From positions 1 to 46,628 of the IMG/VR virus record IMGVR_UViG_3300014613_000008: a stretch of 46,628 nt of DNA; one strand, written 5' to 3'. This document shows, in pieces, positions 12,616-41,932 of this stretch. The first letter of the stretch is position 1, and every line of letters begins with the position of its first letter. The position numbers and the translations under genes are program-made. This stretch comes from a virus (taxonomy: Duplodnaviria > Caudoviricetes). The notes under the pieces are model-generated. The model ran no database searches and had not been told where the DNA came from. It worked only from the letters and a program-made list of their open reading frames with translations.

Positions 12616-13099
12616 CGATATCCTTGAACGATTGGAACCTTTCGAGGCGCTGGATGACCTCTCCGGACACGACGATCTCCTTCCGCTCCGTCTTGTCGAC
12701 GTCGACCTTGGTCGGGGGGAAGGCATCTTTCACGCGAAGGGACATTTCTACCGCCTTGAGTTGGGCCATGTTGTCCGATCGGCCTTCGAAAGCGGGATGC
12801 TCACAGTCGAGCAGTTCTTTTAGTTTCTGGGCCAACTTCTCGTTGTTGACACCCTCTTTTTTGAGGGCGCGTTGCATGGCCTTGTTGTTGACGAGCGCCT
12901 TGATAACCCTGCCGGCGTTTCCTCGGGCTACTCGCCCAGGTGGGAAACCGGCCGCGACCGCCAACTGCTCACGTTTGGCAAGATCAAAGCCGCTGGCCTG
13001 AAAAAGCTGGACGAATTTCACATCCCTTTCGGTCTGGATCTTCGTGTCTTTCTCTTCGGACCCGTCGATCGGTTCGGGATCCGGAAATTCGTCTGTCAT
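12578..13099 (-). CDS. terS: Terminase small subunit (putative)
   Basis: 173 aa helical protein immediately upstream of and overlapping terL; HTH-like AVAAGF segment and QLKAVEMSL helix. Confidence 0.65.
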   Translation of the reverse strand: MTDEFPDPEPIDGSEEKDTKIQTERDVKFVQLFQASGFDLAKREQLAVAAGFPPGRVARGNAGRVIKALVNNKAMQRALKKEGVNNEKLAQKLKELLDCEHPAFEGRSDNMAQLKAVEMSLRVKDAFPPTKVDVDKTERKEIVVSGEVIQRLERFQSFKDIDVEAVTVRDASD

Positions 13100-13626: not shown

Positions 13627-13655
13627 GAAATACGCCCTATTTGGTCGTCTGTCAA
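13627..13655 (-). promoter_or_regulatory. Sigma70-type promoter for the packaging/structural operon
   Basis: TTGACA-17 nt-TATTTC with AT-rich upstream DNA, just after a terminator and about 30 nt before the first ATG. Confidence 0.6.
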
Positions 13656-16070: not shown

Positions 16071-16198
16071 CCCTCGCCTCCTCCCGCCAGATTTTAGGCC
16101 CCCGGTCTATCTTCCCACGCTCCCCGGAGACATCCCTGGTGAGTTCGTCCGCCTCTTCAGGCCCGTGGGACCAGGGTCGAAACTAACTGATCATCCCC

Positions 16199-16216
16199 TT
16201 ATAACGCTACCGTCCG
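16199..16216 (-). promoter_or_regulatory. Phage-specific promoter motif, copy L2
   Basis: CGGACG GTA GC G TTATAA on the - strand. Confidence 0.75.
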
Positions 16217-16322
16217 GAAACATGCCGGCCTACCGAGTCCTCAGCCGGCCCGCTGGATGTAGCCCAACGACCAGAGGCGCATTGTCCCAAGTCGCCGTAC
16301 TCGCTCCAGGTTCTTCACCACG

Positions 16323-16340
16323 TCATAATGCTCCCGTCCG
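16323..16340 (-). promoter_or_regulatory. Phage-specific promoter motif, copy L1
   Basis: CGGACG GGA GC A TTATGA on the - strand. Confidence 0.72.
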
Positions 16341-16504
16341 ACCAAAACCCCCTCTCCCCCCTGCCCCTCCCCTTCACCCCCATACAAAAACCCCTCACAG
16401 CCCCTCCCAGGCCCCTCCCGGGCCATCCCTAGGCCAAACCACCAGGTAGAAAAAGCCCTTTATGTCATTTTTACCAGGAATATATCCCCGAACGTCACGA
16501 TGAT

Positions 16505-16830
16505 ACGCGCCCGCGCGCACGCGCCACGCCCCATACCCCCCCCCCTCGACCCCTTTCCGCTCATCCGCGCCCCTGAAACCCCGTCCGACCGGCCTATATA
16601 GATATATATATATATATCTAGTTAAAACTAGTTATACCCTGTTCAGCCTTTGTATGTATCTAAGAAGGCTTACCTAGGTATATACCTAGATAGGCCTACA
16701 TAGATATACCTAGATATATATATATAAGCCTATCTAGTTCTACAGATATACCTATTCCCCCTTGATATATATATATATAACGGGGGGTGTGGGGGGTGAA
16801 GATGACAACATCGGGGGGGGTCGGGGGTGA
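16505..16830. other. Divergence centre: C-rich / TA-palindrome / G-rich block, candidate physical terminus or origin
   Basis: Non-coding. C-runs on the left, G-runs on the right, three (TA)n tracts and several palindromes; gene strand switches here. Confidence 0.55.
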
Positions 16831-16834
16831 TCGG

Positions 16835-16852
16835 CGGACGACGGCTTTATGA
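16835..16852 (+). promoter_or_regulatory. Phage-specific promoter motif, copy R1
   Basis: CGGACG ACG GC T TTATGA upstream of GAGGTGA RBS and ATG 16906. Confidence 0.75.
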
Positions 16853-16905
16853 GGGGGCGACCAGTCAGGCCAGCCAAGGCGGGCGGTCAAGTGAGGTGAA
16901 TCACT

Positions 16906-17109
16906 ATGAGAAACTGTGTCATCAAGGTGGAAGGGGACAAGATGACGATCAGCGTTGACTTGTCCAAGAACCTGGGGCGGTCCAAGAGCGGGAAGAGCCT
17001 GTTGATCGCCAGCACGGACGGGGCGGTCAAGGCGGACACCAAGGCCGGGAGCGTGTCGATCGGCCTGAACGTGTACACCACGGACAAGGGCGCGTCGGTC
17101 GGGGCCTGA
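16906..17109 (+). CDS. Small beta-rich early protein
   Basis: 67 aa, VDLSK..G.SKSGK...IAST.G...IGLNVY pattern; has its own motif promoter and terminator. Confidence 0.85.
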   Translation: MRNCVIKVEGDKMTISVDLSKNLGRSKSGKSLLIASTDGAVKADTKAGSVSIGLNVYTTDKGASVGA

Positions 17110-17122
17110 CCGCCCAGGGGCG

Positions 17123-17152
17123 GGGCGGGGGCGGTCCCTCGCCCTTTTTTTT
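17123..17152 (+). terminator. Intrinsic terminator
   Basis: GGGCGGGGG-CGGT-CCCTCGCCC followed by T8. Confidence 0.8.
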
Positions 17153-17200
17153 GCTTGGGGCGGGCCTTGCGCCCTGTCATCCGCTCGGGATCAGGGGCGG

Positions 17201-17218
17201 CGGACGGTAGCATTACAA
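17201..17218 (+). promoter_or_regulatory. Phage-specific promoter motif, copy R2
   Basis: CGGACG GTA GC A TTACAA upstream of GAGGTGA and ATG 17241, right after a terminator. Confidence 0.8.
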
Positions 17219-17240
17219 GGGGACGAGAGGTGAAAACATC

Positions 17241-17543
17241 ATGAGCAGGTTTTACGCAAGTATCCACGGGAACAGGGGCGAAGGGACGCGCCAAGGGTCG
17301 GAGAGGAGCGGCATCCATGGCCACGTCCGCGGATGGAACATCGGGGCGCGGGTCCGGTGCTTTGTGGGGACGGACGGGACGGATCGCGTCAGCGTGTCGA
17401 TCACGGGCGGAAGCAACGGGAGCGGCAAGGAACGGTATCTCGGCACGTTCGCGCGGACCAAGGGCGGGCGCATGGTGCGGCTGGACGGTCCGGAGCGTGG
17501 GCGCAAGGTCCGGAAGGTCGAGGCCGTGGCGGAAGGGGTGTGA
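17241..17543 (+). CDS. Early phage protein
   Basis: MSRFYASIHGNRGEGTRQGS..SG....RGW.IG pattern resembling podovirus early genes; strong RBS. Confidence 0.8.
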   Translation: MSRFYASIHGNRGEGTRQGSERSGIHGHVRGWNIGARVRCFVGTDGTDRVSVSITGGSNGSGKERYLGTFARTKGGRMVRLDGPERGRKVRKVEAVAEGV

Positions 17544-17740
17544 CCGTGGACACTTACACCATGGCGGACGCCCTGATCGGTCTGGCACAAGAACAGCACG
17601 ACTTGGCCGATGCGCTCAGGGGGTCAACGGACGAGAACGACCAGGAAATATACGCCCTATTGACCCTTCGTGCCGATGCGCTTGATCAAGTCATTGAAGA
17701 GACGGGGCTTGACAGGGTGGAAGAGGCTGATCATGTATGA
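17540..17740 (+). CDS. Small acidic helical protein
   Basis: GTG overlapping the upstream stop; D/E-rich, 66 aa. Confidence 0.6.
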   Translation: MTVDTYTMADALIGLAQEQHDLADALRGSTDENDQEIYALLTLRADALDQVIEETGLDRVEEADHV

Positions 17741-17954
17741 CCCTGAGTATGACGACCAGGTGGAATACTTGATTGACGGGGTGGGGTTCGCGGACCCGGG
17801 CGGGCGGTCCGCCTTGAGGCGGGCCACGCGGCGCAACCCGCGGTCCTTCCCTTGCCCGACATGCGGGGAGCCTAACAGCCTCACCCGGATTGACGTGATG
17901 CGGCACTATCAATGCGACATCTGCGCTGACCGGGCGGAAGGGCGGCTGGACTAG
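17733..17954 (+). CDS. Zinc-ribbon early protein
   Basis: FADPGGRSALR...PCPTCG...LT..D....YQCDIC; GAGG RBS. Confidence 0.75.
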   Translation: MYDPEYDDQVEYLIDGVGFADPGGRSALRRATRRNPRSFPCPTCGEPNSLTRIDVMRHYQCDICADRAEGRLD

Positions 17955-17957
17955 GCC

Positions 17958-18164
17958 ATGAACACACAAGCGATTGTCCAGATCAGGCGGGATCCGTTCG
18001 CCCGGGGGTCACTCATGCGGATATATGCCGAGGGGCCGTGCCGCTGGTGCGGTCGACCTGGGCGGTTTGCCTGCGGCTGGGAAGAGGATCAGAGGCCCGG
18101 GCGTGTCCACTTTGAGGGGCCTTTCTGTTCCCTGTCCTGCTATATCACCTATCATGGGGGATGA
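17958..18164 (+). CDS. Small zinc-finger protein
   Basis: CRWCG...FCSLSC. Confidence 0.7.
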   Translation: MNTQAIVQIRRDPFARGSLMRIYAEGPCRWCGRPGRFACGWEEDQRPGRVHFEGPFCSLSCYITYHGG

Positions 18165-18165
18165 C

Positions 18166-18381
18166 ATGACCAGAGAATATATGGCGGTTGATCAGCACGG
18201 CCAGACCTACCATGCGCTTGGGCCTCACCCCAGGAAATCGTTGATGGTTCTCGCGGGGCGCAAGCGGGCGGCAAAGATGTACGTTGACGGGAAGGACGGG
18301 AAGGCCTACCACGTGGGCTATGTGATAGGCCGTCTTTGGTTCACCCTCTACCGCGTCACGCCCGTTAGGAAACCGGCATGA
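18166..18381 (+). CDS. Hypothetical early protein (71 aa)
   Basis: MTREYMAVDQHGQTY...KMYVDGKDGKAYHVGYVIG; coupled to the next gene. Confidence 0.7.
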   Translation: MTREYMAVDQHGQTYHALGPHPRKSLMVLAGRKRAAKMYVDGKDGKAYHVGYVIGRLWFTLYRVTPVRKPA

Positions 18382-18812
18382 CAGACTTTGTCCGGTGCTA
18401 TAACTGCGGGTTGATCGCGGCTCCGCTTGACGCGCTGGGCGGGCTGTGCCCGTCATGCCAGGGCGTGCCCGAGGTGCGCGGTCAATCCCAAGAAGACTAC
18501 TGCCGGGGGTGTGCCCATGAAGAGGCGGGCGGGTGTAACGTGATTCTCAAGGACGGGGAAGTGTGCGGCGACAGGATCGAACCCGACCCCCCGGATCATG
18601 ACGACTCCGACGCCATCTGCCCGTGTGACAACCCCGATTGTTCAAGACCCTGGGGCCACCTGCCGGACGAGGACCAAGGCCCGCTGTTCAGCGGTGTCCT
18701 TGAAACAGCGGTTGGGCCTATTTATTCGTTCCCGCCAGGGACAGGATCATACGCCGAGCGCAAGGCCAAGCGCATGAGGGAGGCCAAGCGCATGAGAGAG
18801 GCCAAGCCATGA
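18378..18812 (+). CDS. Cys-rich protein
   Basis: Multiple CxxC motifs; C-terminal AKRMRE tandem repeat. Confidence 0.65.
   Translation: MTDFVRCYNCGLIAAPLDALGGLCPSCQGVPEVRGQSQEDYCRGCAHEEAGGCNVILKDGEVCGDRIEPDPPDHDDSDAICPCDNPDCSRPWGHLPDEDQGPLFSGVLETAVGPIYSFPPGTGSYAERKAKRMREAKRMREAKP
18763..18812 (+). repeat. 18-bp tandem repeat (about 2.7 copies)
   Basis: aggccaagcgcatgaggg / aggccaagcgcatgagag / aggccaagccatga. Confidence 0.85.
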
Positions 18813-19054
18813 AACCCAAGACAAAGAAAGAAGCCCGGAAGGTGCGGAGATCTCAGCGGGAAGCAAAGGAAAGAATACGCCACGCCGCGCCTGATTTGCT
18901 TGTGGCCCTGCTTGACCTCACAGCACTTTACGCGGCCACGCCAGGGCATGACCCCTGTTTTGTCAAGAAAGGGCAAGCCGCCATCGCCAAGGCGCTGAGG
19001 GGCCGAGCGGACGCCAGCGTTATGAATCAAGGCGGAGGTGAAAAATGGAATTGA
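18809..19054 (+). CDS. Hypothetical protein with AAPDLL motif
   Basis: IRHAAPDLLVAL...AAIAKA, a common phage helical motif. Confidence 0.7.
   Translation: MKPKTKKEARKVRRSQREAKERIRHAAPDLLVALLDLTALYAATPGHDPCFVKKGQAAIAKALRGRADASVMNQGGGEKWN
19008..19025 (+). promoter_or_regulatory. Phage-specific promoter motif, copy R3
   Basis: CGGACG CCA GC G TTATGA upstream of GGAGGTGA and ATG 19045. Confidence 0.78.
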
Positions 19055-19347
19055 GCAAGCGGCAGATCAGAGAGTTGGTTCTGTCCAAGGGGATGAGCCG
19101 GGACAATTTCCAATCGGCCTTCTACTCCGACCGGGAAGAGTACATGGTCCACGTGTTCACGGAAAAAAGGGACGACAAAAATCATGTTCGCATCACCGTC
19201 ATGGACAGGAACACCGGCCAGACCGTGGCCCAGATCAACGAGGTGGGGAAGATCGAGAACCTTAAACCTCTGGACTATTTCGTGGCCTCAGAGATGGGAC
19301 ACGTCCGCCTCTACAAGTACCGGAACGACAATCCGGCGGGAGCGTGA
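19045..19347 (+). CDS. Hypothetical protein
   Basis: 100 aa, strong RBS. Confidence 0.75.
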   Translation: MELSKRQIRELVLSKGMSRDNFQSAFYSDREEYMVHVFTEKRDDKNHVRITVMDRNTGQTVAQINEVGKIENLKPLDYFVASEMGHVRLYKYRNDNPAGA

Positions 19348-19477
19348 GCGTGGCCTTGGTGATTTACAAAATCGCGCTGTTTTTCCTCATCCTCGGTGTG
19401 ATAGGATGGGCGTTCAGCAAGGCGTCAAGGTTCATGGCCAAGCATGACGCCGACATCAAGGGAAAGGAGAAAAACCC

Positions 19478-19696
19478 ATGGCGGTAGAAGTACTGTATGC
19501 GATGCTGGCCATTCTGATCATGGCGGGGTGCTATGCCCTGGGACACAAGTTCGGCATGCGCCGGGGGAAAGAGATCACCCTGGCCGTTCAAGCAGAGATG
19601 CGCCGGCGAGAGGCAGAGATGTTCTGTGCCGTGGATGAATACGTCCCGTCTCTCGAGGAAATCTTAGGGCGGGAACATGCCGTACGACAAGACTAG
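19478..19696 (+). CDS. Small membrane-anchored protein
   Basis: N-terminal TM helix; AAGGAG RBS. Confidence 0.65.
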   Translation: MAVEVLYAMLAILIMAGCYALGHKFGMRRGKEITLAVQAEMRRREAEMFCAVDEYVPSLEEILGREHAVRQD

Positions 19697-20018
19697 AACG
19701 GGCGGCAAGAAGTTCCGCGAACTAGAGAAGATCGGCGCTCTCTGGATGAAAACATCTGCCGCAGAGGGAAAGAAATATCAGAGCGGGGTTGTAGGCCTGT
19801 CACACAGCGATGACGACATTGTTCTCCACAAAGGCGACAAGATATTGATCTACGCCAATAAGCACCGGGCCAACGAGAACTCCCCCTGGTACTACCTGTT
19901 CAGGGAGAAGCCAGATGAGCCGGAAGAAGAGGAAGAGATGCCCCTTGGCGCCCAGGAAGACGACGCGCCCAGCGACGAGGAAGAGCCGAAAAAAGATGAC
20001 GATGACATCCAGTTCTAG
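19677..20018 (+). CDS. ssDNA-binding-like protein (DUF736-like) with acidic tail
   Basis: IGALW.K.S...KY.SG...N.....SP.Y and C-terminal DDDDIQF, like the SSB DDDIPF tail. Confidence 0.65.
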   Translation: MPYDKTRTGGKKFRELEKIGALWMKTSAAEGKKYQSGVVGLSHSDDDIVLHKGDKILIYANKHRANENSPWYYLFREKPDEPEEEEEMPLGAQEDDAPSDEEEPKKDDDDIQF

Positions 20019-20036
20019 CGGACGCTAGCGTTATAA
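20019..20036 (+). promoter_or_regulatory. Phage-specific promoter motif, copy R4
   Basis: CGGACG CTA GC G TTATAA(T), immediately after a stop codon and upstream of GAGGTGA and the recT ATG. Confidence 0.8.
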
Positions 20037-20054
20037 TTCTACGAGAGGTGAAAT

Positions 20055-21041
20055 ATGAGCGAAAAGAAAAACGCGGAGATGGTCGTCAGGAAACCGGATG
20101 CGATCATCTCGCCCATTCCGGACGCGAAAAACGTCCGCCTCTTGGCCACGGACCTGTTCAACTCCAGACTCTTCCGCGGGGTCGAGTCCATCCCCCACGC
20201 CATCGCCGCCATCCAATGCGGGGCGGAGTTGGGGATCCCCCCCGTGTCGGCCCTGAACCAGATCAAGATCATTAAGGGGCAGATGACGCTATCGGCGCGG
20301 CTGCTCCTAGCCCTGGCCGTGACAAAGGCTGGCGTGACGTGGAGGGCCGTTGAGTCCACCGACAAACGGTGCGAGATCGTGTTCTCGCGCCCGGGCTGGC
20401 AGGACGCGACAAGTATCTTCACGATTGAGGAGGCAAGGTTGGCCGGCCTCGTCAAGGACGACAGCGGGTGGCAGAAGTTCCCCGTCGACATGCTCTTTGC
20501 CCGCTGCTCCTCGCGCGGAGTGCGGAGGATTGCCCCGGACGCGACCATGGGGCTGTACGCGACCGAAGAGATCCAAGACGCCGACATCATCGAGGTCCAG
20601 GCAGAGGTCCAAGGTGCCGATGACATCTTCCCCCCGGCTGGCCCGGTCGAGCATCCGAAAGAGGCGCCGGCCAAGAAAGAGCCGGAGCCGGAGAAGCCGA
20701 AGGCTAAGGAGCCTGACCCGGGAGACGAGATCGCGGCCATGGCCGAGAGCGCCGAGGACGTTGAGGCCATGGAGGGCAAGGACGAAGAACTGGAAAAGGC
20801 CATCCAGAAGATCAAGGACCGGGTCCAGGCCGCGGGCGTAGACCTGACGGCCTTCAAGGAGTGGCTGTTCTCGTACCAGAACAAACTCCGACCGGTCAGG
20901 GCGATCCTGGGAAAGATCGGGAAGTCCTACCGCTTCCACCTGGGCAAGAAGAAAGACACCCTCCAACTCGCGGATAAGATCGACGACGCCATCACGACCT
21001 TCCGTACGGGCAGGACGAGTACGGGGAAGGAGGTCAAGTGA
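20055..21041 (+). CDS. recT: RecT/Redbeta-family single-strand annealing protein
   Basis: G.ELG.PP..AL..I.IIKG, FTIEEA..AGL, W.K.P..ML.AR...R...PD...GLY..EE. Confidence 0.85.
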   Translation: MSEKKNAEMVVRKPDAIISPIPDAKNVRLLATDLFNSRLFRGVESIPHAIAAIQCGAELGIPPVSALNQIKIIKGQMTLSARLLLALAVTKAGVTWRAVESTDKRCEIVFSRPGWQDATSIFTIEEARLAGLVKDDSGWQKFPVDMLFARCSSRGVRRIAPDATMGLYATEEIQDADIIEVQAEVQGADDIFPPAGPVEHPKEAPAKKEPEPEKPKAKEPDPGDEIAAMAESAEDVEAMEGKDEELEKAIQKIKDRVQAAGVDLTAFKEWLFSYQNKLRPVRAILGKIGKSYRFHLGKKKDTLQLADKIDDAITTFRTGRTSTGKEVK

Positions 21042-30723: not shown

Positions 30724-33700
30724 CTAGTATCTGGTGCGTTTGGCCAGGAAGCCGTCCTTCTCGAGTTCTTCAACGAGTTTGCCAATGGCCTCCATCTCTT
30801 TCCCGATCGCTTCCATCCTCTTGTTCCGAGCCTTGGCTTTTTCATCGACTTGCCATTGAGGGGCGGTCGAGTTCTTCTTGAGCCACATATCGAAATCCGC
30901 TTTGGCGTCCGACTTCTGCTGCATGCGATCCTTGACGGCGCCGGCCATCAGAGCCATGGGGTCGACGTCCCACGTCCGGATCCCGGTGAAGAAATTCTTG
31001 ATCTCCTCCGGAAGATGCCTGATCCGGCCGTAGCGATCGGGGTTCTGGTTGTAGGCGTCGATGATTGCCTTGATCTGCGGGCCGGTGAGGATCCCGGGGC
31101 GCACGTTCTCGCCCGGGCCAAGATGACCCTTGATGACCCCACTTAGGTCAGGGATGGGCATTGAAGCCGGCATGTAAAGGTAGGCGGCGACTGCCGACAA
31201 TCTCTGGAAGAAGGTGTTGTACTCTGTCCCCCATTGAGGATCCCTGCCGGCGATGAGCATCGACCAGACGTCAAAGAGAGGGTGAGAGAAGAAGTCCGCG
31301 GCGTCCTTCATGCTGACGATGTCGCCCGTGGCCAGGGCTTTCCCGAATCGTTCGAACTCCCCGAACGGGTTGATGTAACTGAGGTCGAACACCTTCAGGG
31401 GTCCGTCCTTGTGCATACGGAAATAGACAAACGTGCCGTTCCTGCGATAGTCGGGATAGTACGACTCGAGTTGCCTGACCTTCTCGTCGTCGACGTCGAA
31501 GATCCGCTTGGAGACTTCCGACATGATGGACGGGAGAGCCAGGACTGTTGCTGCGGTGATCAGCCGGCCGAAGCCCCGCCCGCGAGTTCTGGGATTGCTT
31601 GCCTCTTGATATCCGCGTTCCGCTTGTTTCAGGATGATCGTCGCGGCGTTCCACCGGAAAGAGATGAACGGGCCAAGGAACGGCCAGCGGCGGAGGAAGT
31701 CCGCGATGAGCGGCAGTTTCCGGTAGTTCGGCAGCGCATCGTTGACTTCTGCCACGGACTCAACCGCGGACATCCCGCGATCGAGGTTATGGAGATGCGC
31801 CGCGACCCTGTACCAACTATCCTCGAAATTGTAGAACTCGCCCAACTTGTCGATCGGCAGGGAGACAGCGGCATCCCAGAGTTTTTCGTACCACTCGGGA
31901 TCATCGAAATTCATAATTTTATCGTGCATCCTGGGGATCTCGGCACCGTAGAACTGCGTCTCCGTGACGCCATGCTTGATCATCTCGGCCCACTCCGCCC
32001 GGTGGGTCGTGGAGAGGCCCTTGATGATCTGAAAAGCCTTTCCGTAGTATTTCCAATTCAGAGGATTGAGCAGACTATTCCGCGCCAGGACGGAGAAGAC
32101 GATGTTGCCTTCGAGGTTCCGCATGTGGGTCGGGTAGGATCCGATCGTCTTGGTCCACTTGAACGGGTTCATGACAAACTTCTGGATGACCTGTTCCATC
32201 TCCGACCGAGCGTAATCGATTTCCCGCTTTACGTACTGAAACAGTTCGGGGGCAACGAAGGCACCGCGGAGTTCGCCGTACGCATGATCGTCGGGGAGCC
32301 GCGAGTGGATCCACGATTCTGCCTTGTCCGCAGATGTCCGGATCTTCCTGGCCCGCTCCGGATCTTTTGTCCAGAGTCCGCCCGGGTTCCGCGGCGTGTT
32401 CTCCCCGTAGGAGTTGGCCAGCCAGGACAGGAACTTGGCGTTGTAGGCCATGGTAGCCTGTTTGGTGACTGTTTTCATGAGAAGCCAGGGAAGCCTTTCG
32501 ATTTCGCCGGCAAACTCCCTCCAGGCCGGAGAGAGTTCTTTGCGATGGATGTAACTTTCTGTCGGGATCCTCTTGGTCTTCTGCTTCCTGACCGGTCGGA
32601 TCCCCTCGTCGTTTCTGGCGTATGCGAGTTCGCCCTGGACGAAGGCCTCGGCTTCGTCGTCGGTCATCTGATAGCGGGTCATAAGATCCCGCTTGAAGGC
32701 GGCTTTCTGGGCCGTGGTTGGACTCCAATGCTTGTCCTCGAAGAGTCGATACGCCTTCATGAGGTACTTGCTCATGTTCCGCTGGAACGTCTCTTCCGTC
32801 TCGGCAGGGAGAGCGCCGTAGGTGACGATCAGTTCCGAAAGCCGATCGCTTCTGCGGCGGAGCCGGAGGAGGTTGTCCTTGACGTCCTGCGGGAGATGGC
32901 TGTTCATGATATCATTGTAGCCATTCCCGGTGATGTCGCCCGCGTAGAGATCCATCAGATAGTCGTTGACCGCGGCCGGCTGCTTGTCGAGCCACTTCCT
33001 CAGATTGTTGACATCGACTGTCTGGTCGAAGATCTCCGCCATCTTGGACCCAAGGCGCTCGTCATTCTGTCTGTCGATCGCAACGGTAGCCCCGCGGGTC
33101 CGGAAGAAAAACTTCCGGATCCACTTGGCCAACCGCCGCAGATCCTCTTCGTTCGGGACCGGGCCAAGACCGAGTTTGATCATCCGATCCTTCATCATCT
33201 GCTTGATGGCATCGCTATCCGTAAGTTGGGCAAGGAGATTCTGGAACGTCTCATGAGCCACGGACTTGGACATCCCCAGGCGCTTGCCCAAGGACGCGAA
33301 CGATTCGGGGCTTTGCATAAGGCGAGATCTCAGGATCTCGTTGTATCTCTCCTCGAGGACAACGTCTCCCCGGGCCGCTCTCTGGGCGACGGTGCGGAGG
33401 ACGTTGATGACACGGATCTCTTCGGATCCGAACGCCTCTTCTCTCGCCTCGAGGCCCGCGTACTCCGGCTCGGCTGGCGGCTTGCCCACCGGCCCGGTCT
33501 CTTCACCGAAAACGCTGGCTGCTTCGGGGAAGTCCGGTTGCGCTGCCGTTGTCAGAGCCTCCGAAGGAAGGACTCCCCTGGACCTCAAGCCCGCCTCCGG
33601 CCATTGGACCTCGGCGTGCTGACGTTCGAACGCGACCGCTCTCTCGCCGGAAGGCATCTCGCCTTTGAGGAAGTGCCGCTTGATGCTGTTGACGTAGTTC

Positions 33701-36700
33701 TCGAGCGGGCCGGTCGAGGGGTTGTAATGCTCCATCGCATAGAGCAGGACGTTCTGGCGGTTGTCTTGGATCTCCTCCGGTGTGTTCCCGACCCATTGGG
33801 TGGGGAAGTTCTTGCCCGTGGTTAATTTCGTGACGGTGTTGGCGATCTCTTCCTTCGATGGGCCAACGACCGCAGCGCCTTCGTAGAGCGGGGCCGCTTC
33901 CGGCATGGGGAGGACGCCCTGGGGAAGACGTTCACCTTCCCGGGGGACGTAGGCCGGCTCCGGGCGGAGCGGCGGGGCCTTCTCTTCGGGCGGGGCGAGA
34001 GCGAACGGTTCCTCCGAGACTACCGCGCGGTCTTGGCGAACTCCCACACCTGGCGGCTGACCTTCAGGAGCGCCTGGTGGACGGGGCTGTTCAGCTGCGC
34101 CCCTAGGGAGAGGCAAGCCTGTCGTGCGATCGAGTTCAGGACGGTCTCGATCCGCTGGCCTTCTGGCACCTTGTGGCCCTTCAGGGAAGAGTCCAGGTTG
34201 CGCCACGTCCCTGACTCGCCGGATGGCGTACTCGGGGGGATCTTGGCTTTGCCCATCTGCTCCTGGGTTTTCGGTTGGGACGCCTCCCTCTTGGTAGATT
34301 GGATCGCTGACATCGTTGACCTCCATCATGTCGAGATTAAGTTGCATTTGCGGAGCCGTGAGATCTCGCGCTTGGTCTGCCGGGATCTCCCGCACCATTC
34401 CAGACGACGATCGTGTGCGGGTTTTCTTCGGGAGCCGAGTTATCTTGACTGGTTTCCCGGTCACAACCTCTGCTATCCCAAGGAGATCTCCGAAGCGGTG
34501 GGCGACCGAGTTTAGGATCTCGGTAAATTTCATGTCGAATTTCTCCCCGTGGGAGTAGTATTCGTGCGTGAACTCATGAGCCACATATTCCATGACGGCG
34601 ACCGCGTAATTCGAGGGATTGGTAGCCCGCTTGGAGTCGAAATTGTAGAGGTTGTGGTTCAAGCCCAGGCGCCCACGATTCTCCGGAAGCCGGGAACGGC
34701 TCCCAGAGTATTCGGATGCGACAACCTTGCCCATGAGTTCCCTCGAGAGGAGAGCGTAGAGTTCCTTATATGGAGCGTCGGCTGCCTGATGGAAGATTTT
34801 CGCGACCGCATCGTAGACAGTCAGGAAGATCGCATTTTCTTCGCTGCCGCCAAGTTCCTGCTCGTACCCCTCGTCGATCTTGATCTTCATCGTGTGAAGA
34901 TTGAGAGGAAGGATCGACTTTCCGTCATCCGTTTTCAGCATGCGGATCAACTGCCTTAACTTTATCATGACCGGGTTGTTGTGGACGTTATCGAGGGTCT
35001 GCTTCCATTCCCCGCGTCCGGCCAGAATCTCTTCATTCGACTTGATCGCGGCCCTCATCGAACTCTCGGGATCCTGGGAAAGGCTGCGGACGATGTCGAG
35101 GACTTGCGAGTTCAGTTCTCCCGACTTGAACGACTGACGGTTGTCCGCCAGGGGATACTGAGGATCCTCGGGTTTGATCTTGGTGAGAATGTCCACGACG
35201 AGGAGGCCGCTGTATCCTTCATTGTACTGCCGCGCGATGTTCTGGATCAACCGGACTTCCGGCATGGTGGGGTGAGCGATCCGATAGAGGACGTTTCTGC
35301 TGAGATATTTCGAAACATCCATCCATCCCATGAGCGAGGGGAGTTTCAGTTCATGTCGCCAATATGCGTCCAGCTTGTCCAGCTCGGGAAGAGGATAGTA
35401 CATGATCTCGAACGTGATACCCTCTGCTCCCGCCGCTTCCTTTTTCACTCCCTCAATTCGGTCAAGAAGGTTTTCCTGTGGCCGCTTCAGCAATTCCTGA
35501 TCCAAGGTCTTGTCGAACTTCTCCGGGGCTTGCGCTTTCTCCCAGGTGAACTTGATCTTATCCTTCGGGACGCTGTTCAAGAGAACGTAGAGTGGAGCAA
35601 CTTCTGTCATGACATCCTGGTAGTATTCCTTGTTCGTCTGCTTTTCAAAGGGCCACGTGACGGAGAGTTTGGTCCCCTGGCGCTTGGGGACAGCCCTCGC
35701 TCCACCAGCCCTCTTGACGATCGCGGAATCGACATAGTTGTCCCGCGTCTCCAGCGACCATATCGTCTGTTCATGAGGCCCCAGGATGACCGCCTTTCCG
35801 ATTCCGAAATTCCCGATCGCACCCTCGATTGTCTTCCCTGTTCCGTAAAGAGAGAGGAAAACATTTGCGACATCCTCGTCGCTCATGCCTATCCCGTTAT
35901 CCTCGATTTCGATCAATCCGTCTCTGAATTTCAGGTGGATCTTACCTTCGGAGATCTCGCCGGATTTCAAGGCCATGATGACGGCGTCGACCGCGTTCTG
36001 CTGCGCTTCCTGAAGGGCCTTGTCTCCCAGGGCGACGTCACCGTATTTCGTAACCGCGGCGTTGTTCCAGGCGCGGACGGCATCGACCCTCATCTGCATC
36101 GGGATGGCCTTCTCTATGCCCAGGGACGGCCCCGTGGATTCGCCAAGGACACCGATCTCGCTCGGCTTCAGTCTGGCTCGATCCTGCTCGGTCAGTTTAT
36201 TCAGATAGAACTCGATTCCACCGTTGATCATGCCGGGGGAAAGGTCAGGGGCCTGTTTGCCCTCGAGTAGTTCAAAGACAAAATCTGATCCTTTTCCCAA
36301 ACGCGCAGCTTCAGCCAACTCGTCGAGGATTTCTTGCGGCGGACTTTCCAATGGGATGACGCCTGTCGCCGTCCCGTATTTCTCTTCGCGGAGATCTTTG
36401 ACCTGGGCGAACACCTCTCGCGGAAGGCCAAGGGCTTCCCTGGCATCGCGACCGATCCGCCCAGCCTCGCTCCAGGGAGATTCGTTATAGACGCCGTCCC
36501 TGATGAACCCGCCTCCAATAACCCTCTCCGCTGGAAGCCCTAACTTCTCGACAAGGAGGTAATGATTCGGCTCCTTCCCAAAATAGATCCCACCGTCATC
36601 GGTCCTGACGGCGGTGTAAAGACCCTCTTCGGGAATCTTCGGCTGGACCGGAAGCGGACGAGGCTCTGCCCTGGCAACCTTGAACGCTGGACCCTCTTCT

Positions 36701-39700
36701 GTTCCGCCACCTCGACCAGAAAGTTTGTCCGTAAAACCCTTGAGCCGAACCTGGGTGTAGAAATAATCACCGACATCGTCACCGAACCCTGTCTCGCGGG
36801 TCTCTTTCTCCATCCTGGCCCAGAACTCGTCGTCGCCCTCGCCTTCTTTCTTCAGGAGGTTGATGTCGTCTTGGATCCTTTCCGCTGCCTGTTCCTGCTC
36901 TTCTTTGGATGGCCCCGCCCACTCTTCCCCGGCCTCGCCCAACTTAATCCCTTCGCCGGCTTGGTATTGAATGGCCGCTTGCTTGAGCAGCGAGTAGATG
37001 TCCTCGGTAACGAAACTGTAACCGTAATCTTTCTCCAGGGCGTCCTGTACTTCATCGAAAGAGAGGGCGTCAGGCGACTTGCTCACCATGAACTTGGGGA
37101 CGTTTTCCGTAAATTCTGACGACACCTTCCCCGTGGTGACGCTCTTGGCCGGCTTTATCCCGCGCCCACCCGTAACGGCAAAGATGTCGTCGTAGATCTT
37201 GACCTTGCCCTTGGGCCAGCCGACAATCCCGCGGGCCATGGACGCCTTCGCCCGAGACGCCATGATCTTCCGTGTCTTGTACGTCGTTGCCGCGGGGATC
37301 CGCAACGCCTTCCGGTTATAGACAAAGAAATCGTGCTTCCCGCTTCCGCCCGTGTAGGATTTATAAAGATCCTTGCTGCCGTACTTATCCGTTTTCCCAA
37401 AGTATTCCCATTCGCCGGGGGCATGCTTGACCTCGAGAACATCGTAGCCGGCCTTCTTCGCGGCCTTGATGAGCGCGGGAAGCGCGTCCCGGGTGTAGGT
37501 GGTTCGGACGAACTGCTGGGCTTTCTTCAGCGAGTCAATCGTCAGGATCCTAGCATCCGGTTTCAGGAAGGCCTCTATCGACTTGAGGGGCGTCTTTCTT
37601 AGGGCGTTCGGGACTTTGATATACGCCTGTTTCTCGTAGTCATAGTAGGAGTAGTCGAGGTCTCCCTTGCCTTCCCCGACGAAAATATCGGCAGAGGCCC
37701 ACCGCTCGGGATCCTTGGTGAAATAGAGTATCCCGCGGCCCATCTTCTGAGCAGGAGCATAGCCCTTTTTGCCCTTGGGGATGTCCACTTGCCCGATACC
37801 GAAAAGGGGCGGCAACTTTGTGTTGAATCCCGTGTCATAGATCTTCTCGATGTTCTCTTCTTTGGTCCAATGATAGATCGCTTCTTCCGCCCGCGCGGTC
37901 CCCACCGTCTCGGTTGGGCCGACCTTGCCCGCGTTCTTCGTGAGGTAGAAATTCTTGTCCGCTTCCTCAAGGGACGCCCCGAATCCGGCAACGAGTTCGA
38001 TCGGCTTCCCGTTGATGACGACGCCCTTCAGTTCTTCGTTCAGTTTATTAACGTCAGCCTGAAGTTCCTGTGGATCGTTTCCGCGGAGAGTGAACTCGTC
38101 CCCGCCGTATCGGGACGCCCTCCACGTGATCGGGTTGTCCCCCTCATTGAATCTCTCAAGCCGGTCTTGGATCTCGGAAAAGACCTGTTGGTCCGTTCCT
38201 TCGTGGGTCAGCATGTCGTTCCAGCCGCGGAGATCCTTGACGTCGAGCATCGCCACGTACTTGTAGACACCCTTTCGTTCTTGGATCTCGGATAGTTGGG
38301 CGTTCCCGATCCCCGCCATCTTCTCATGCTCGAGCATGCCTCGAGCGAATTCGAGATCTTCAGGTTTGGCTGGGATCTTGCCTTCGAAGTCAGCGATCGC
38401 GGTGTCGATGACGCGACGTTTGGCCAAGTTTTCCGGTCGACGCATACCCCGCGGGGCCTCCGGAAGGCCCAAAGGCTCCCCTGGGACGGCGGGTGGTTCA
38501 GCCACCGGAGGGGCCTCTCCGGGCCTAGGCGGGGCGATCTCCCCCGGAGGCAGCCCTCGGGTAGGGGAAGGGGTAGGTTGTGGCCCTGGGGCCGCTCCAG
38601 CGGGCGGAGCGGGCCTTCCTACGGCCTGTGTCTGGAAGGGTTCCCCCGGTTGGATCGCAAAAGGCTTTGGCGCTGGCTTGAAAATGTCCATCATCCCAGG
38701 TTTGCGGCCAAACCCCTTGACCATGCCCTCGTTGATCGCACGCCTCCACCCGGGACTCTGATTGAACAGGTCGATGATGGCGGTGTCGATCTCTGTCCAT
38801 GCTTCTGTGGTCCGGCCCGCGGCCTTCGCCTTCATCTTGTTGTAGAGGTTCTGGATGTCCTTCCCGGTGAACTCGAACCCGCCTCCCTCCGGAGTCGTGA
38901 CCTTGACGCCAGGGCCATACCCAGGTCTCCGGCCTCCGCCGCGGAACCGAAACCCGGTGTAATTCTTGTTCCAATTCAGAATCCTGGCGGCTTGGCCGAT
39001 CCCAAGCGCTCCAGACTCGAACACCGCGAAGAAGAGGAGTGCTGACGGGGTTTGCTCGAGTCGCTTCAGGAACGTATCCTTTCCTTCCGGCTTCCCGGCA
39101 ATCCCAAACGGAACACCCAGGGAGATGGTCCTGATCGCGGCCTGGAGGATCGGAACGGTTGTCGCACGAACGGCGATCCTGGTCCCGATACCGCCGCCGA
39201 CAAGTTTTCCGCCCACCATCCTTTGGGGTCCAGCAAGGCCTCTGAAAACCGGGAAAAGACCCACTATCCCAGCGATTGTCTGTGTTGCTTCCCGGCCAAG
39301 TTTGGGGTCATAGCCGAGAGCCTCAATCTGCTGCTGACGTTCTGTCTCGCGGAACTCCGCGGCGGATCCCGGCTCAATCGCTTCCATGACCGCATCGAAC
39401 GTGATATAACCGCCCGAAACGAATCTTGGGATCGCCTCGAGAACGGCCGCGGCCATGCCCTGGCCCTTGATCTTTCCTTGGAGATCGGCCTTGATGAGGT
39501 CTCCGACCTGCTTGAACGCGCTACGTACGGCCCTGGTCGGAGGATTGAATGTGATCTGCGGGAACTTCGGCCCGTCAGGAACTCCGACCTGCTCCGGGCC
39601 AACCGTGATGATCGGCTCTCTCCGGAGTGGATTCCATGCCGTCTTTTCCATCCACTCCTGCATCCCGGGCGGGACTGGCTCCGGTTCGGGCGGAGGCGCT

Positions 39701-40032
39701 TCGACCAAACCTTTCCCAACCATCCACGCGCCGACGTCTTTCTTCATCTCCTCGCGGAGGTTGATCGGCCTGTCGATGAGTTCGCCCTTGAGAACACCCT
39801 TCCCTGCTTTCCTGTGTTCCGCAGAAGCCTTCCGGTACTCTTCGGTAAAGAGTTCCGGCCTCTTGCGATCGACCGTCCTCATTTCGACGAGTCCGCGGTC
39901 CTGCATCCACGAAAGCACCTGCGGGTTGTAGGGGGTTTTTCCCGTGGCTATGCGCGGTGTGCCGCGGTACTTCGGCGGCTTATCCTCTTCTTCCCCAATC
40001 GGAGGAAGGATCTGCTCTTCAGGCGTGGCCAT
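30724..40032 (-). CDS. Giant polyvalent internal-virion/ejection protein (GGDEF, ART-like, GHKL ATPase, HEXXH peptidase, sigma-like r2+r4, helical C-terminal domain)
   Basis: 3102 aa; third and largest of three genes after the tail fibre, i.e. the T7 gp14-16 / P22 gp7-20-16 position. Motifs are detailed in the findings. Confidence 0.85.
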   Translation of the reverse strand: MATPEEQILPPIGEEEDKPPKYRGTPRIATGKTPYNPQVLSWMQDRGLVEMRTVDRKRPELFTEEYRKASAEHRKAGKGVLKGELIDRPINLREEMKKDVGAWMVGKGLVEAPPPEPEPVPPGMQEWMEKTAWNPLRREPIITVGPEQVGVPDGPKFPQITFNPPTRAVRSAFKQVGDLIKADLQGKIKGQGMAAAVLEAIPRFVSGGYITFDAVMEAIEPGSAAEFRETERQQQIEALGYDPKLGREATQTIAGIVGLFPVFRGLAGPQRMVGGKLVGGGIGTRIAVRATTVPILQAAIRTISLGVPFGIAGKPEGKDTFLKRLEQTPSALLFFAVFESGALGIGQAARILNWNKNYTGFRFRGGGRRPGYGPGVKVTTPEGGGFEFTGKDIQNLYNKMKAKAAGRTTEAWTEIDTAIIDLFNQSPGWRRAINEGMVKGFGRKPGMMDIFKPAPKPFAIQPGEPFQTQAVGRPAPPAGAAPGPQPTPSPTRGLPPGEIAPPRPGEAPPVAEPPAVPGEPLGLPEAPRGMRRPENLAKRRVIDTAIADFEGKIPAKPEDLEFARGMLEHEKMAGIGNAQLSEIQERKGVYKYVAMLDVKDLRGWNDMLTHEGTDQQVFSEIQDRLERFNEGDNPITWRASRYGGDEFTLRGNDPQELQADVNKLNEELKGVVINGKPIELVAGFGASLEEADKNFYLTKNAGKVGPTETVGTARAEEAIYHWTKEENIEKIYDTGFNTKLPPLFGIGQVDIPKGKKGYAPAQKMGRGILYFTKDPERWASADIFVGEGKGDLDYSYYDYEKQAYIKVPNALRKTPLKSIEAFLKPDARILTIDSLKKAQQFVRTTYTRDALPALIKAAKKAGYDVLEVKHAPGEWEYFGKTDKYGSKDLYKSYTGGSGKHDFFVYNRKALRIPAATTYKTRKIMASRAKASMARGIVGWPKGKVKIYDDIFAVTGGRGIKPAKSVTTGKVSSEFTENVPKFMVSKSPDALSFDEVQDALEKDYGYSFVTEDIYSLLKQAAIQYQAGEGIKLGEAGEEWAGPSKEEQEQAAERIQDDINLLKKEGEGDDEFWARMEKETRETGFGDDVGDYFYTQVRLKGFTDKLSGRGGGTEEGPAFKVARAEPRPLPVQPKIPEEGLYTAVRTDDGGIYFGKEPNHYLLVEKLGLPAERVIGGGFIRDGVYNESPWSEAGRIGRDAREALGLPREVFAQVKDLREEKYGTATGVIPLESPPQEILDELAEAARLGKGSDFVFELLEGKQAPDLSPGMINGGIEFYLNKLTEQDRARLKPSEIGVLGESTGPSLGIEKAIPMQMRVDAVRAWNNAAVTKYGDVALGDKALQEAQQNAVDAVIMALKSGEISEGKIHLKFRDGLIEIEDNGIGMSDEDVANVFLSLYGTGKTIEGAIGNFGIGKAVILGPHEQTIWSLETRDNYVDSAIVKRAGGARAVPKRQGTKLSVTWPFEKQTNKEYYQDVMTEVAPLYVLLNSVPKDKIKFTWEKAQAPEKFDKTLDQELLKRPQENLLDRIEGVKKEAAGAEGITFEIMYYPLPELDKLDAYWRHELKLPSLMGWMDVSKYLSRNVLYRIAHPTMPEVRLIQNIARQYNEGYSGLLVVDILTKIKPEDPQYPLADNRQSFKSGELNSQVLDIVRSLSQDPESSMRAAIKSNEEILAGRGEWKQTLDNVHNNPVMIKLRQLIRMLKTDDGKSILPLNLHTMKIKIDEGYEQELGGSEENAIFLTVYDAVAKIFHQAADAPYKELYALLSRELMGKVVASEYSGSRSRLPENRGRLGLNHNLYNFDSKRATNPSNYAVAVMEYVAHEFTHEYYSHGEKFDMKFTEILNSVAHRFGDLLGIAEVVTGKPVKITRLPKKTRTRSSSGMVREIPADQARDLTAPQMQLNLDMMEVNDVSDPIYQEGGVPTENPGADGQSQDPPEYAIRRVRDVAQPGLFPEGPQGARRPADRDRPELDRTTGLPLPRGAAEQPRPPGAPEGQPPGVGVRQDRAVVSEEPFALAPPEEKAPPLRPEPAYVPREGERLPQGVLPMPEAAPLYEGAAVVGPSKEEIANTVTKLTTGKNFPTQWVGNTPEEIQDNRQNVLLYAMEHYNPSTGPLENYVNSIKRHFLKGEMPSGERAVAFERQHAEVQWPEAGLRSRGVLPSEALTTAAQPDFPEAASVFGEETGPVGKPPAEPEYAGLEAREEAFGSEEIRVINVLRTVAQRAARGDVVLEERYNEILRSRLMQSPESFASLGKRLGMSKSVAHETFQNLLAQLTDSDAIKQMMKDRMIKLGLGPVPNEEDLRRLAKWIRKFFFRTRGATVAIDRQNDERLGSKMAEIFDQTVDVNNLRKWLDKQPAAVNDYLMDLYAGDITGNGYNDIMNSHLPQDVKDNLLRLRRRSDRLSELIVTYGALPAETEETFQRNMSKYLMKAYRLFEDKHWSPTTAQKAAFKRDLMTRYQMTDDEAEAFVQGELAYARNDEGIRPVRKQKTKRIPTESYIHRKELSPAWREFAGEIERLPWLLMKTVTKQATMAYNAKFLSWLANSYGENTPRNPGGLWTKDPERARKIRTSADKAESWIHSRLPDDHAYGELRGAFVAPELFQYVKREIDYARSEMEQVIQKFVMNPFKWTKTIGSYPTHMRNLEGNIVFSVLARNSLLNPLNWKYYGKAFQIIKGLSTTHRAEWAEMIKHGVTETQFYGAEIPRMHDKIMNFDDPEWYEKLWDAAVSLPIDKLGEFYNFEDSWYRVAAHLHNLDRGMSAVESVAEVNDALPNYRKLPLIADFLRRWPFLGPFISFRWNAATIILKQAERGYQEASNPRTRGRGFGRLITAATVLALPSIMSEVSKRIFDVDDEKVRQLESYYPDYRRNGTFVYFRMHKDGPLKVFDLSYINPFGEFERFGKALATGDIVSMKDAADFFSHPLFDVWSMLIAGRDPQWGTEYNTFFQRLSAVAAYLYMPASMPIPDLSGVIKGHLGPGENVRPGILTGPQIKAIIDAYNQNPDRYGRIRHLPEEIKNFFTGIRTWDVDPMALMAGAVKDRMQQKSDAKADFDMWLKKNSTAPQWQVDEKAKARNKRMEAIGKEMEAIGKLVEELEKDGFLAKRTRY

Positions 40033-40033
40033 G

Positions 40034-41281
40034 CTATCTCTTTATCGGTTCGGGTGGTCTTAGAACTTCCTCGTAATACTTGGTGGCTTCCTCCATGAGC
40101 CACGCGTCCTCCTCCGCTGTCGGAAGGTAATAAGCCCTGTCGAAAATCGTCCGCGCCCGTTGCTTTTCGTCCGGAGTGGCGGTAGCCCATCTCGCCTCGA
40201 CGTCCTTTGCGAAGGCCAACTCATTGGTCGTGACGGGCGGGTGCATTACGTCCTGCATCATCTTCTTGGCCATGCGGATCTGTGCCTCCCGGGATCCCCT
40301 TTCGGCTACTGCTTCATCGGTCTGTCGTTCTCCGGTATAGGGGTCCATCAGGTTTCCGTAGCCCGCGTCAGCGGCCGGCGCCCCGGGTACTCCTGCACGC
40401 GGCGGCACTCCCGCTTCTCCTTCGACGGGAGCCGCGGCCCCGCCTCTCAGTTGGTAGGCGTTGTAGGCCTCCGCGACGAACCTCTCTTGGAGTGGGGTCA
40501 TGACCATCCCTGGCTTCAAACTCTGCTTGATCTCCTGAAGGTACTGAAGGACTTGGCCCCTCAGCTTAGAGGGCAACGGATCCGGAGCCTTTCCCGTCAC
40601 CGCTTGGTACTGCGCCATGAGCCGCTGGAGCGCGGTGGTCGACGGCTGGGCGCCCTCGTTGGCGACGAACCCCTGGGCATCATCGATGTACTTGACCTGT
40701 TCTCTCCGGTACTTGTCTGCGATGTCAAACCCCCCCGCTCCGGCCGTCAAGCCGGCGATTCTGTTCCGTTCCTCCTCGATCTTCTGCTGTCTGCGGGCAT
40801 TGATATTCACGGATGTCCTCTCTGTGGCCCATTGAGCGGCCTGGGATCCGAAACCGTCGAGGAGGCTGTTGTAATTATCCGGTGTCGTCTCGCCTTTCTG
40901 GACCGCGAAAAGGGCATTGGTCAATTTCTCGAGCATCGGCTTCATTTCGCTTTGCGCCTCTTCCGCCAAATGCTCGGTCCCGGGCGGAAGTTCACCAACG
41001 CGGCCCAGGTGGATCATGGCGGTGATCTGATCGAACCTGGGATCTCGGGCGATGTCGAGGAGGACTTTCCTCTGTGCTTCCGCCATCCGTAGGCCGGACT
41101 TCTTCTCCTCGAGTCCTCCTTCGAGTTCTGCGCCTCTTTCCATCCGGCCCATGGCTAAGGTGTTCGCATATTCCTCCTGCCTCATCCTCCGCTGAGACGC
41201 CCGCTTATCGAGCATGTCGTACTGAAGGAACTGATTGAACCGCTGGATCGCTTTTCTTGATTCAGAGAAATCGAGTGGCAT
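40034..41281 (-). CDS. Internal virion/ejection protein (middle)
   Basis: 415 aa, helical, Q/A/E/R-rich; position in the ejection triad. Confidence 0.65.
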   Translation of the reverse strand: MPLDFSESRKAIQRFNQFLQYDMLDKRASQRRMRQEEYANTLAMGRMERGAELEGGLEEKKSGLRMAEAQRKVLLDIARDPRFDQITAMIHLGRVGELPPGTEHLAEEAQSEMKPMLEKLTNALFAVQKGETTPDNYNSLLDGFGSQAAQWATERTSVNINARRQQKIEEERNRIAGLTAGAGGFDIADKYRREQVKYIDDAQGFVANEGAQPSTTALQRLMAQYQAVTGKAPDPLPSKLRGQVLQYLQEIKQSLKPGMVMTPLQERFVAEAYNAYQLRGGAAAPVEGEAGVPPRAGVPGAPAADAGYGNLMDPYTGERQTDEAVAERGSREAQIRMAKKMMQDVMHPPVTTNELAFAKDVEARWATATPDEKQRARTIFDRAYYLPTAEEDAWLMEEATKYYEEVLRPPEPIKR

Positions 41282-41290
41282 AGTCGTCTC

Positions 41291-41932
41291 CTACCTTGCC
41301 GTCAGCCAATCATACGGAACGAGGCCAAACCCAGGGCCGGTCCGCTCTTGGGCCAAGGAGAACAGGTTCGGGTCATAGAGATCCTTGGACAACGTCATGA
41401 CGTCGTCTCCCAATGCTCCCGTTTTATCACCGCCTCCGTCGCCCATGCCCATAATCGCGAACATCGTGGCGATGTCCGTGAAGCCCGGTGCTTTATTCAC
41501 CCGGGAGACGTCCGCTCCAACTCCAGCGCCAAGGATCTGCGTGGCCAGGGAGAGATCCTGCTGCTTCTTTGCACCCTTGGCGATCGTCATGTCGCGGATC
41601 GCGTTCGCAACTAGGTTCTCGTTCGCCCAGGCACTCTTTCTCCCCGCTGAGAGTTCGGCTCCCGTCCCAAGCATCCCCGCCCTTCCGTACGCTTCGGTCG
41701 TCTGCTGGCGCACGTTTCTTCCTTGTGCGCGGATGTTCTCAAAGTCCTTCCCGAACAAGGCGGCGATCTCTTCCTCAGAGTAGCCAGGACTCTGAGCAAG
41801 CGACAACCCTTGCTGCCCGAGGACTTTCAGAAGAGCCTCGATCTCCGGTGGATATTTCTTTCCACGACCTGCCAGGAGAGCGTCCAACAGGGCGCTCCCC
41901 GCTACCGCTACCGCTGCCCATGGGAAAGCCAT
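41291..41932 (-). CDS. Internal virion/ejection protein (small)
   Basis: Hydrophobic G/A-rich N-terminus, YGRAGMLGTG motif; first of the triad. Confidence 0.65.
   Translation of the reverse strand: MAFPWAAVAVAGSALLDALLAGRGKKYPPEIEALLKVLGQQGLSLAQSPGYSEEEIAALFGKDFENIRAQGRNVRQQTTEAYGRAGMLGTGAELSAGRKSAWANENLVANAIRDMTIAKGAKKQQDLSLATQILGAGVGADVSRVNKAPGFTDIATMFAIMGMGDGGGDKTGALGDDVMTLSKDLYDPNLFSLAQERTGPGFGLVPYDWLTAR

Follow-up and report, generated by a model that had tools for sequence, protein, structure and literature searches.

We analysed IMG/VR record IMGVR_UViG_3300014613_000008, a stretch of 46,628 nucleotides of an uncultured phage (Duplodnaviria; Caudoviricetes; hereafter, the window), in which six copies of an 18-bp motif, CGGACG-NNR-GC-N-TTAYRA, are likely to be early promoters, as judged from the nucleotide sequence. 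Probably, although with considerable room for doubt, these promoters are served by a specificity factor that enters the cell with the virion: a module resembling sigma regions 2 and 4 (sigma2 and sigma4), situated within a giant ejection-type protein, would redirect the host core RNA polymerase to the six sites, its sigma4-like part reading the CGGACG box off the beta flap. The record represents a whole circular phage genome (46.5 kb, 123-nt end repeat), podovirus-like by its matches to a P22-type portal and coat (Pfam/PHROG), and its two early arms diverge at a TA-rich block at ~16.6 kb. A sequence-only reading had assigned the copies to a phage-specific early promoter class that needs a dedicated factor. 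Our analysis of the predicted promoters supports this: no near-consensus sigma70 promoter was found in the early region (12.9-29.3 kb), and the number of weak sigma70-like sites there is 5 vs 6.1 expected. The idea of a dedicated factor also fits the private motifs found at equivalent places in related phages and the sigma-like module, which that reading had not named.

All six copies were recovered where they had been reported, each pointing away from the central block, which is AT-rich, consists of (TA)n with inverted repeats (16594..16780) and is likely the replication origin. The leftward arm carries two copies on the - strand, the first at 16323..16340 (predicted +1 near 16315) and the second at 16199..16216 (predicted +1 near 16191). 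Of the four + strand copies, the one at 16835..16852 opens the rightward arm (gene at 16906; predicted +1 near 16860); that at 17201..17218 (predicted +1 near 17226) directly precedes GAGGTGA and the gene at 17241 and, as had been noted, sits just after a terminator, namely an intrinsic-terminator-like hairpin with a T run (17122..17153, + strand) 3' of the first rightward gene; that at 19008..19025 precedes the gene at 19045; and that at 20019..20036 (predicted +1 near 20044) precedes the gene of a RecT-like annealing protein (20055..21041, + strand; PHROG 4171, E 5e-23), which opens the recombination/replication block. The position written as R is a purine throughout, being A in five copies and G in one only.

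The exact motif occurs six times in the window and in none of 100 dinucleotide shuffles. No other full match is present, and allowing two mismatches adds one site only (40234, in a late gene). CGGACG alone is indeed common (51 occurrences), and CGGACG-N6-TTA is confined to these six sites. After a rough correction across all patterns of the same shape, the chance of such a set is about 1e-5, its significance resting on the shuffle test and on this rough pattern-space correction; the loosened form GGAC-N8-TAYRA gives 7 matches vs 0.89 expected. The raw two-block score of the motif (lnP -17.1) is no better than that of a chance match in the relative G006 (-17.2). A search of IMG/VR for the exact motif followed by GAGG returned 9 loci, each a lone match that lacks a further copy within 1.5 kb, and these were treated as chance occurrences.

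The motif can be parsed as a promoter in which CGGACG forms a -35-like hexamer at -25..-20, followed by a 7-bp spacer and a -10 hexamer TAYRAN at -12..-7, with GC-N-T at -16..-13 and a conserved YGA whose A falls on +1. The spacer of sigma70 promoters is 17 bp (PMC12276001), ten more than in the motif, and the canonical layout TTGACA/17-bp/TATAAT is also departed from at -7, where T occurs in one of the six copies. The -10 box as a whole resembles TATAAT and at 20019 equals it. The earlier statement that the copies share no -35 holds in so far as no shared hexamer lies 17 bp upstream of the -10, but is better put as a -35-like box placed ~10 bp downstream of the usual position. The sigma54 consensus is GG-N10-GC, and the rejection of sigma54 stands, the GG-to-GC gap of the motif being 6 nt, not 10. 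As for the ribosome-binding site (RBS) GAGGTGA, said to follow all four + copies, it begins 7 nt past the -10 hexamer at three of them, but 39 nt past it at 16835; the leftward copies have no close RBS, the first Shine-Dalgarno sequence with ATG being found 113 nt after 16216 and none within 240 nt of 16340. Two other readings were discarded: a register with CGGACG as the -35 and YGA, 17 nt further on, as the -10 of a sigma factor of the extracytoplasmic function (ECF) type would bring the start past the RBS at three sites, and an archaeal B recognition element (BRE)/TATA reading was set aside in view of the bacterial-type terminators, the TTGACA-17 sites and the sigma module described below.

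Repeats of this kind, asymmetric, oriented and close to an origin-like TA block, could also be sites of a repressor or an initiator, like the stoperators of mycobacteriophages. That the motif is an operator, a stoperator or a replication-related binding site, and not a promoter, we consider highly improbable. It contains a fixed -10-like TA box, and Y-G-R starts 3-5 nt past the -10 hexamer in 5 of the 6 window copies (background 0.22; the sole copy without it is at 19008) and at the start-site distance in 11 of 12 sites of three relatives (G001, G002, G007), hence in 16/18 over four genomes, a signal that may come partly from the downstream RBS. Furthermore, the copies follow a terminator, directly precede RBSs and reach 3.4 kb from the TA block, and no integrase or repressor family was matched in the window by the Pfam, PHROG and NCBIfam scans.

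The candidate factor is a part of a polyvalent ejection-type protein of 3102 aa encoded in a single open frame of the - strand (30724..40032), with which the virion block ends. Family scans reveal a GGDEF-like domain (aa 584-700) and a HATPase domain (aa 1339-1463) in it; there is also a HExxH motif of a candidate zincin protease (34564..34578, aa 1819-1823), and the C-terminal domain matches PHROG 22602 'virion structural protein' (E 6.5e-5). By this combination the giant protein fits the profile of polyvalent injected proteins. Two genes (415 and 213 aa; 40034..41932, - strand) precede it, an order that we take to be typical of podovirus ejection genes, and from the gene position together with the PHROG 22602 match we infer that the giant protein is packaged and ejected. 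An ADP-ribosyltransferase (ART)-like segment was seen by eye at about 37300-37880 (aa ~718-910); it could modify the host polymerase, as T4 Alt does, and the giant protein of the relative G003 has a Pfam ART-PolyVal match.

Downstream of the HExxH motif, the giant protein contains a sigma2-like helical domain (33610..33855, aa 2060-2141), recognized by atlas, model and fold matches, and a sigma4-like helix-turn-helix (HTH) domain (33175..33450, aa 2195-2286), recognized by profiles and fold matches. ESM Atlas places the module (aa 2060-2286) at 0.95 beside Sigma70_r2/r4/ECF clusters. A profile search with the module gave 16 matches. Of these, 15 are large proteins of phage type, or fragments, that include the module region; the homologues, like the window's module itself, are embedded in large proteins and do not stand alone. 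The family set used below (n=15, including the window) was obtained after dropping one unrelated repeat protein and one N-terminally incomplete match. Pfam Sigma70_r4 matches 6 of the 15 members (best 3e-9), the family profile matches RpoH at 8.7e-6, and the modules of two relatives exceed Pfam cut-offs, that of G310 for Sigma70_ECF and r4 and that of G309 for r4. The AlphaFold model consists of two confident helical domains with ~55 disordered residues between them; all 48 Foldseek matches listed for it are sigma chains of holoenzymes, the structural alignments carry residues 9-235 onto sigma2-sigma4, and the sigma4-like domain superimposes on region 4 of SigA with Z 8.6 and rmsd 3.0 A over 80 residues. 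Across the family, the recognition helix is hypervariable at its surface positions and conserved at its buried ones. When the sigma2-like domain was modelled in complex with residues 215-345 of E. coli beta', used as a stand-in, the prediction scored 0.46 vs 0.00 for the best control, which we regard as weak support for binding, given that in the calibration only 18 of 157 solved complexes scored this low and both of the 2 false passes among 215 mismatches fell here. The contacts agree by at least 97% between runs, the partner pLDDT is 70-74, and the prediction may echo remembered solved sigma-beta' complexes.

The early regions of seven relatives were read (G001, G002, G003, G006, G007:C27, G309 and G310); the seven long metagenome relatives were covered by their 10-kb flanks. 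None of the seven genomes whose early regions were read has the window's motif, as expected of a phage-specific class. Six of them have an oriented motif of their own, each unique to its genome, located at the arm heads and pointing away from the divergence point: TTGACC-N5-GGATAT in G001 (5 copies), KKACA-N3-TGGATATAAG in G002 (3 copies; one site of this type is present in L093), TAAAG-N4-YGGATATA in G007 (4 copies), GGGYGGTT-NN-GGGYTTGWTG in G003 (4 copies, with a different, GC-rich layout lacking a TATA-type -10), TTGACR-N17-TATWGR with TCT before the -10 in G309 (9 copies) and GTGACA-N14-GCGGTT in G310 (4 copies). These motifs were found within oriented early regions, so their location is partly circular; whole-genome scans revealed no exact copies elsewhere. 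After rough correction, the motifs of G001, G003, G309 and G310 have values of 1e-2 to 1e-4. A 7-8-bp spacer with a TATA-type -10 is found in four of the eight genomes (the window, G001, G002 and G007), and these are the four whose modules have a longer N-terminal signature. TA blocks comparable to that of the window lie at the divergence points of G001, G003, G006 and G007:C27, and G001, G003 and G007 also carry a copy of their own motif before the annealing-protein block, as the window does at 20019. G001 has one more site, with one mismatch (34065, + strand), where the giant gene ends and immediately ahead of the lysin gene. Near-consensus sigma70 promoters were noticed beside the divergence point in G002 (35304, + strand) and G003 (25577, - strand); the window has no such promoter there.

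The strongest sign that the embedded sigma4 may read its box at short distance comes from a single case, G007, and consists in the agreement between helix and box sequences. In this relative the early region lies on contig C27 and the giant gene on C67; overlaps of 127 nt chain them as C27-C150-C67 and were used for the linkage because tetranucleotide matching is confounded by length. The recognition helix of its giant protein, EGRVSQI, finds its best match among WhiG/sigma28-type factors, and its box is YTAAAG, with CTAAAG in 3 of 4 sites; the -35 element of sigma28 is TCTAAAG and is contacted by region 4.2 (PMC12784957). In G309, the helix TRQRAEQI resembles TRERIRQI of SigA, and the box is TTGACR. 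For the window, a tie between the sigma4 helix and CGGACG can be suggested by analogy only.

The motif might instead be read by a host factor, either an alternative sigma or the polymerase of a bacterial lineage whose promoters have 7-bp spacers. We regard this explanation as improbable. G002, a close relative whose capsid is 80% identical, uses a different motif, and in 301 genomes of the phylum of the G007 metagenome-assembled genome (MAG), a single phylum, 19 had one match, against 25 matches in 23 genomes for the reversed control. The family also keeps ordinary TTGACA-N17 sites before the terminase gene terS. In the window such a site, TTGACA-N17-TATTTC (13627..13655, - strand), lies 556 nt 5' of terS, with a T-rich stretch upstream of it and a small gene between it and terS; judging from its sequence alone, it is likely a late promoter of the host sigma that depends on an activator. 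Nine of the 15 sequences examined from relatives have a TTGACA/TAGACA-N17-TA(T/G) site with a weak -10 at 240-790 nt 5' of terS (G002, G006, G007:C27, L093, L086, L089, L030, L024 and L145). The host promoter geometry thus looks conventional, and the motif appears to be a separate class. Related contigs are present in MAGs labelled Dehalococcoidia and Armatimonadota, which may reflect binning only; in one Dehalococcoidia-labelled MAG, that of G007, four contigs (C27, C60, C134 and C40) each carry a related phage capsid gene, which points either to mis-binning or to repeated infections within the lineage.

Several observations weigh against a virion-borne sigma factor that reads the motif at short spacing. 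The window's own module matches no sigma model of Pfam or NCBIfam, and single-sequence Pfam and PDB searches with it were blank; no member of the module family matches the Sigma70_r2 HMM among the 25 families listed, and none of the Foldseek matches listed for the module reaches an E of 0.001. No sigma whose specificity is known matches the window helix, SKSVAHETF. The motifs of G002 (3 copies) and G007 (4 copies) are not significant alone after rough correction, and those of G309 and G310 have near-normal spacing. For G309 a TTGACA box at 7-9 bp had been predicted in advance, and the box proved right but the spacing wrong, being 17 bp; this case has little power to discriminate, since host promoters use TTGACA as well. 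In G006 no multi-copy motif was found, though a weak module is present (E 0.002), and G310 encodes, besides its module, a stand-alone sigma4-like early gene. Finally, the giant protein of G003 has at the position of the sigma module a conserved 370-aa helical domain (aa 1278-1650; L046:8000-9120), which gave no match to the sigma profile by HMM, HHalign (1.3%) or atlas. Its fold is weakly sigma-like (41 of 50 matches being sigma; best E 0.089; model pLDDT 54).

Some of these facts bear on another explanation, according to which host sigma70 opens the TATA-type -10 box while a small, early-made phage activator binds CGGACG, in the manner of MotA- or CII-dependent middle promoters, the module having some other job, for example occupying the core polymerase for host shut-off. 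The likeness of the -10 to TATAAT, exact at 20019, speaks for it, as do the stand-alone sigma4-like genes in the early arms of G310 and, apparently, G006 and several HTH candidates in the window: those at 19045 (Pfam E 0.018) and 41291 (PHROG D5-like, E 0.008) are weak or were seen by eye, and a by-eye or weak candidate at 14728 is conserved in G002, L093 and L086. We nevertheless find this explanation unlikely. Both arms begin with copies of the motif, ahead of their first genes, and the searches found no conventional promoter that could supply an activator beforehand; scans of the window's open reading frames (ORFs; 30 + 23 against Pfam, 28 against PHROGs and 51 against NCBIfam) gave no match to a polymerase, sigma or transcription-factor family beyond weak HTH scores, the early ORFs, some of them small and unassigned, having no sigma or transcription-factor match in the Pfam and NCBIfam sets; T at -7 is found in one of six copies only; and in G007 the box tracks the helix of the giant protein. 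The stand-alone sigma4-like genes come first in the terminase-ward early arm (G310, 34066-34365, + strand; G006, near 12298, + strand), the one in G006 being fused, as seen by eye, to an XRE-like HTH; both are candidates for a late activator or a rival specificity factor.

We suppose that the virion-delivered sigma module acts as follows. The giant protein would be packaged in the virion and ejected along with the DNA. Its sigma module would act in place or be cut free by the candidate HExxH protease. The sigma2-like domain would dock on the beta' clamp helices and open TAYRAN at -12..-7, GC-N-T would serve as an extended -10, and transcription would start at the A of YGA. The sigma4-like domain, on its long disordered linker, would bind CGGACG at -25..-20, on the same face of the helix as a -35 box and one turn closer; it would thereby be displaced from the beta flap, like sigma70 region 4 in the lambda Q-loading complex. 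Early products might then permit late transcription from the TTGACA-17 site before terS. The recognition helix and the box could change in step, so that every phage would have a promoter code of its own. We infer packaging, release, binding to core, the start sites and the off-flap pose from the features described above. A broader version, to which we would give somewhat less than an even chance, is that a virion-injected sigma was fused into the ejection polyprotein and that one branch of the family rebuilt its geometry, with a 7-8-bp spacer, a flap-free sigma4, an initiation complex of a kind not previously observed and orthogonal helix-box pairs (CGGACG, TTGACC, TAAAG, GGACA) unreadable by host sigmas.

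Several other genes of the window were noted. The large terminase gene (10285-12726, - strand) has an intein with a homing-endonuclease-like insert, which most relatives do not have; a free-standing LAGLIDADG gene (25347-25964, + strand) lies upstream of a DUF5131 gene, and an HNH-like gene was seen by eye between the portal and scaffold genes (7639-8022, - strand). A Dam-type N6-adenine methyltransferase was identified by family scans at 24898-25395 (+ strand). The RecT query found no relatives.

What is new here is the proposed link of a short-spacer motif with a sigma module in a giant protein, together with a family of candidate factor-motif pairs. If the proposal is true, injection of the specificity factor only would be a third route to transcription at entry, between the use of host promoters and the injection of a whole polymerase, and a sigma70-family factor would initiate with a box brought ~10 bp nearer than is compatible with the 17-bp rule, which is usually explained by the binding of sigma4 to the flap. 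Natural pairs of factor and promoter, differing in box and falling into two spacer classes, would then be available in the phage family as potential orthogonal expression parts.

Full-text literature searches, in which few subscription papers were covered, yielded no description of a virion-borne sigma or of a promoter one turn short. The systems closest to the proposed one differ from it as follows. Polyvalent proteins are large injected proteins with GGDEF, ART and zincin HExxH domains (Iyer et al., 2017; PMC5512222), and the giant protein of the window resembles them in joining HATPase, GGDEF-like and HExxH elements with a virion C-terminal domain; in the main text of that paper the words 'sigma' and 'promoter' do not occur. 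N4 and other Schitoviridae carry a giant ejection protein (about 3000-3500 aa) with early transcription machinery (PMC13434306). However, N4 injects a whole polymerase, whereas the window shows only a specificity module that would need the host core: no polymerase domain was detected in the giant protein by Pfam, PHROG or NCBIfam, nor a DxDGD motif, the fold search having been confined to the module. In the sigma54 promoters (-24/-12) the upstream element is about one turn closer than -35, and the window's motif is similar in this position; it differs in its 6-nt gap, not 10, and in that the candidate factor belongs to the sigma70 family. At T4 middle promoters, a MotA box replaces -35 recognition beside a sigma70-type -10 (PMC12276001, PMC6755090). 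These promoters depend on host sigma70 and two early products, whereas no MotA/AsiA-like match was found in the window. The MotA box is located at about -30, the window box at -25..-20. In the lambda Q-loading complex, region 4 of sigma70 comes off the flap-tip helix to bind a -35-like site near sigma2 (PMC9388147), which sets a precedent for the proposed geometry; that complex, however, is a paused elongation complex requiring Q, in which the site is immediately upstream of a -10-like element and not at 7 bp, and it does not serve initiation. Finally, the phage sigmas gp36 of phiEco32 (with gp79) and gp55 of T4 redirect the host core to phage promoters (PMC12276001, PMC7824862). The window's module resembles them as a divergent sigma70-family protein, and the gp79/gp36 complex (9m7y) is among its fold matches; they are, however, stand-alone proteins made after infection for middle or late genes, their early genes being transcribed with host sigma70, and the C-domain of phiEco32 gp36 sits on the flap tip, whereas in the window the module is part of a virion-type polyprotein and the motifs, with their 7-bp spacer, stand at the earliest genes.

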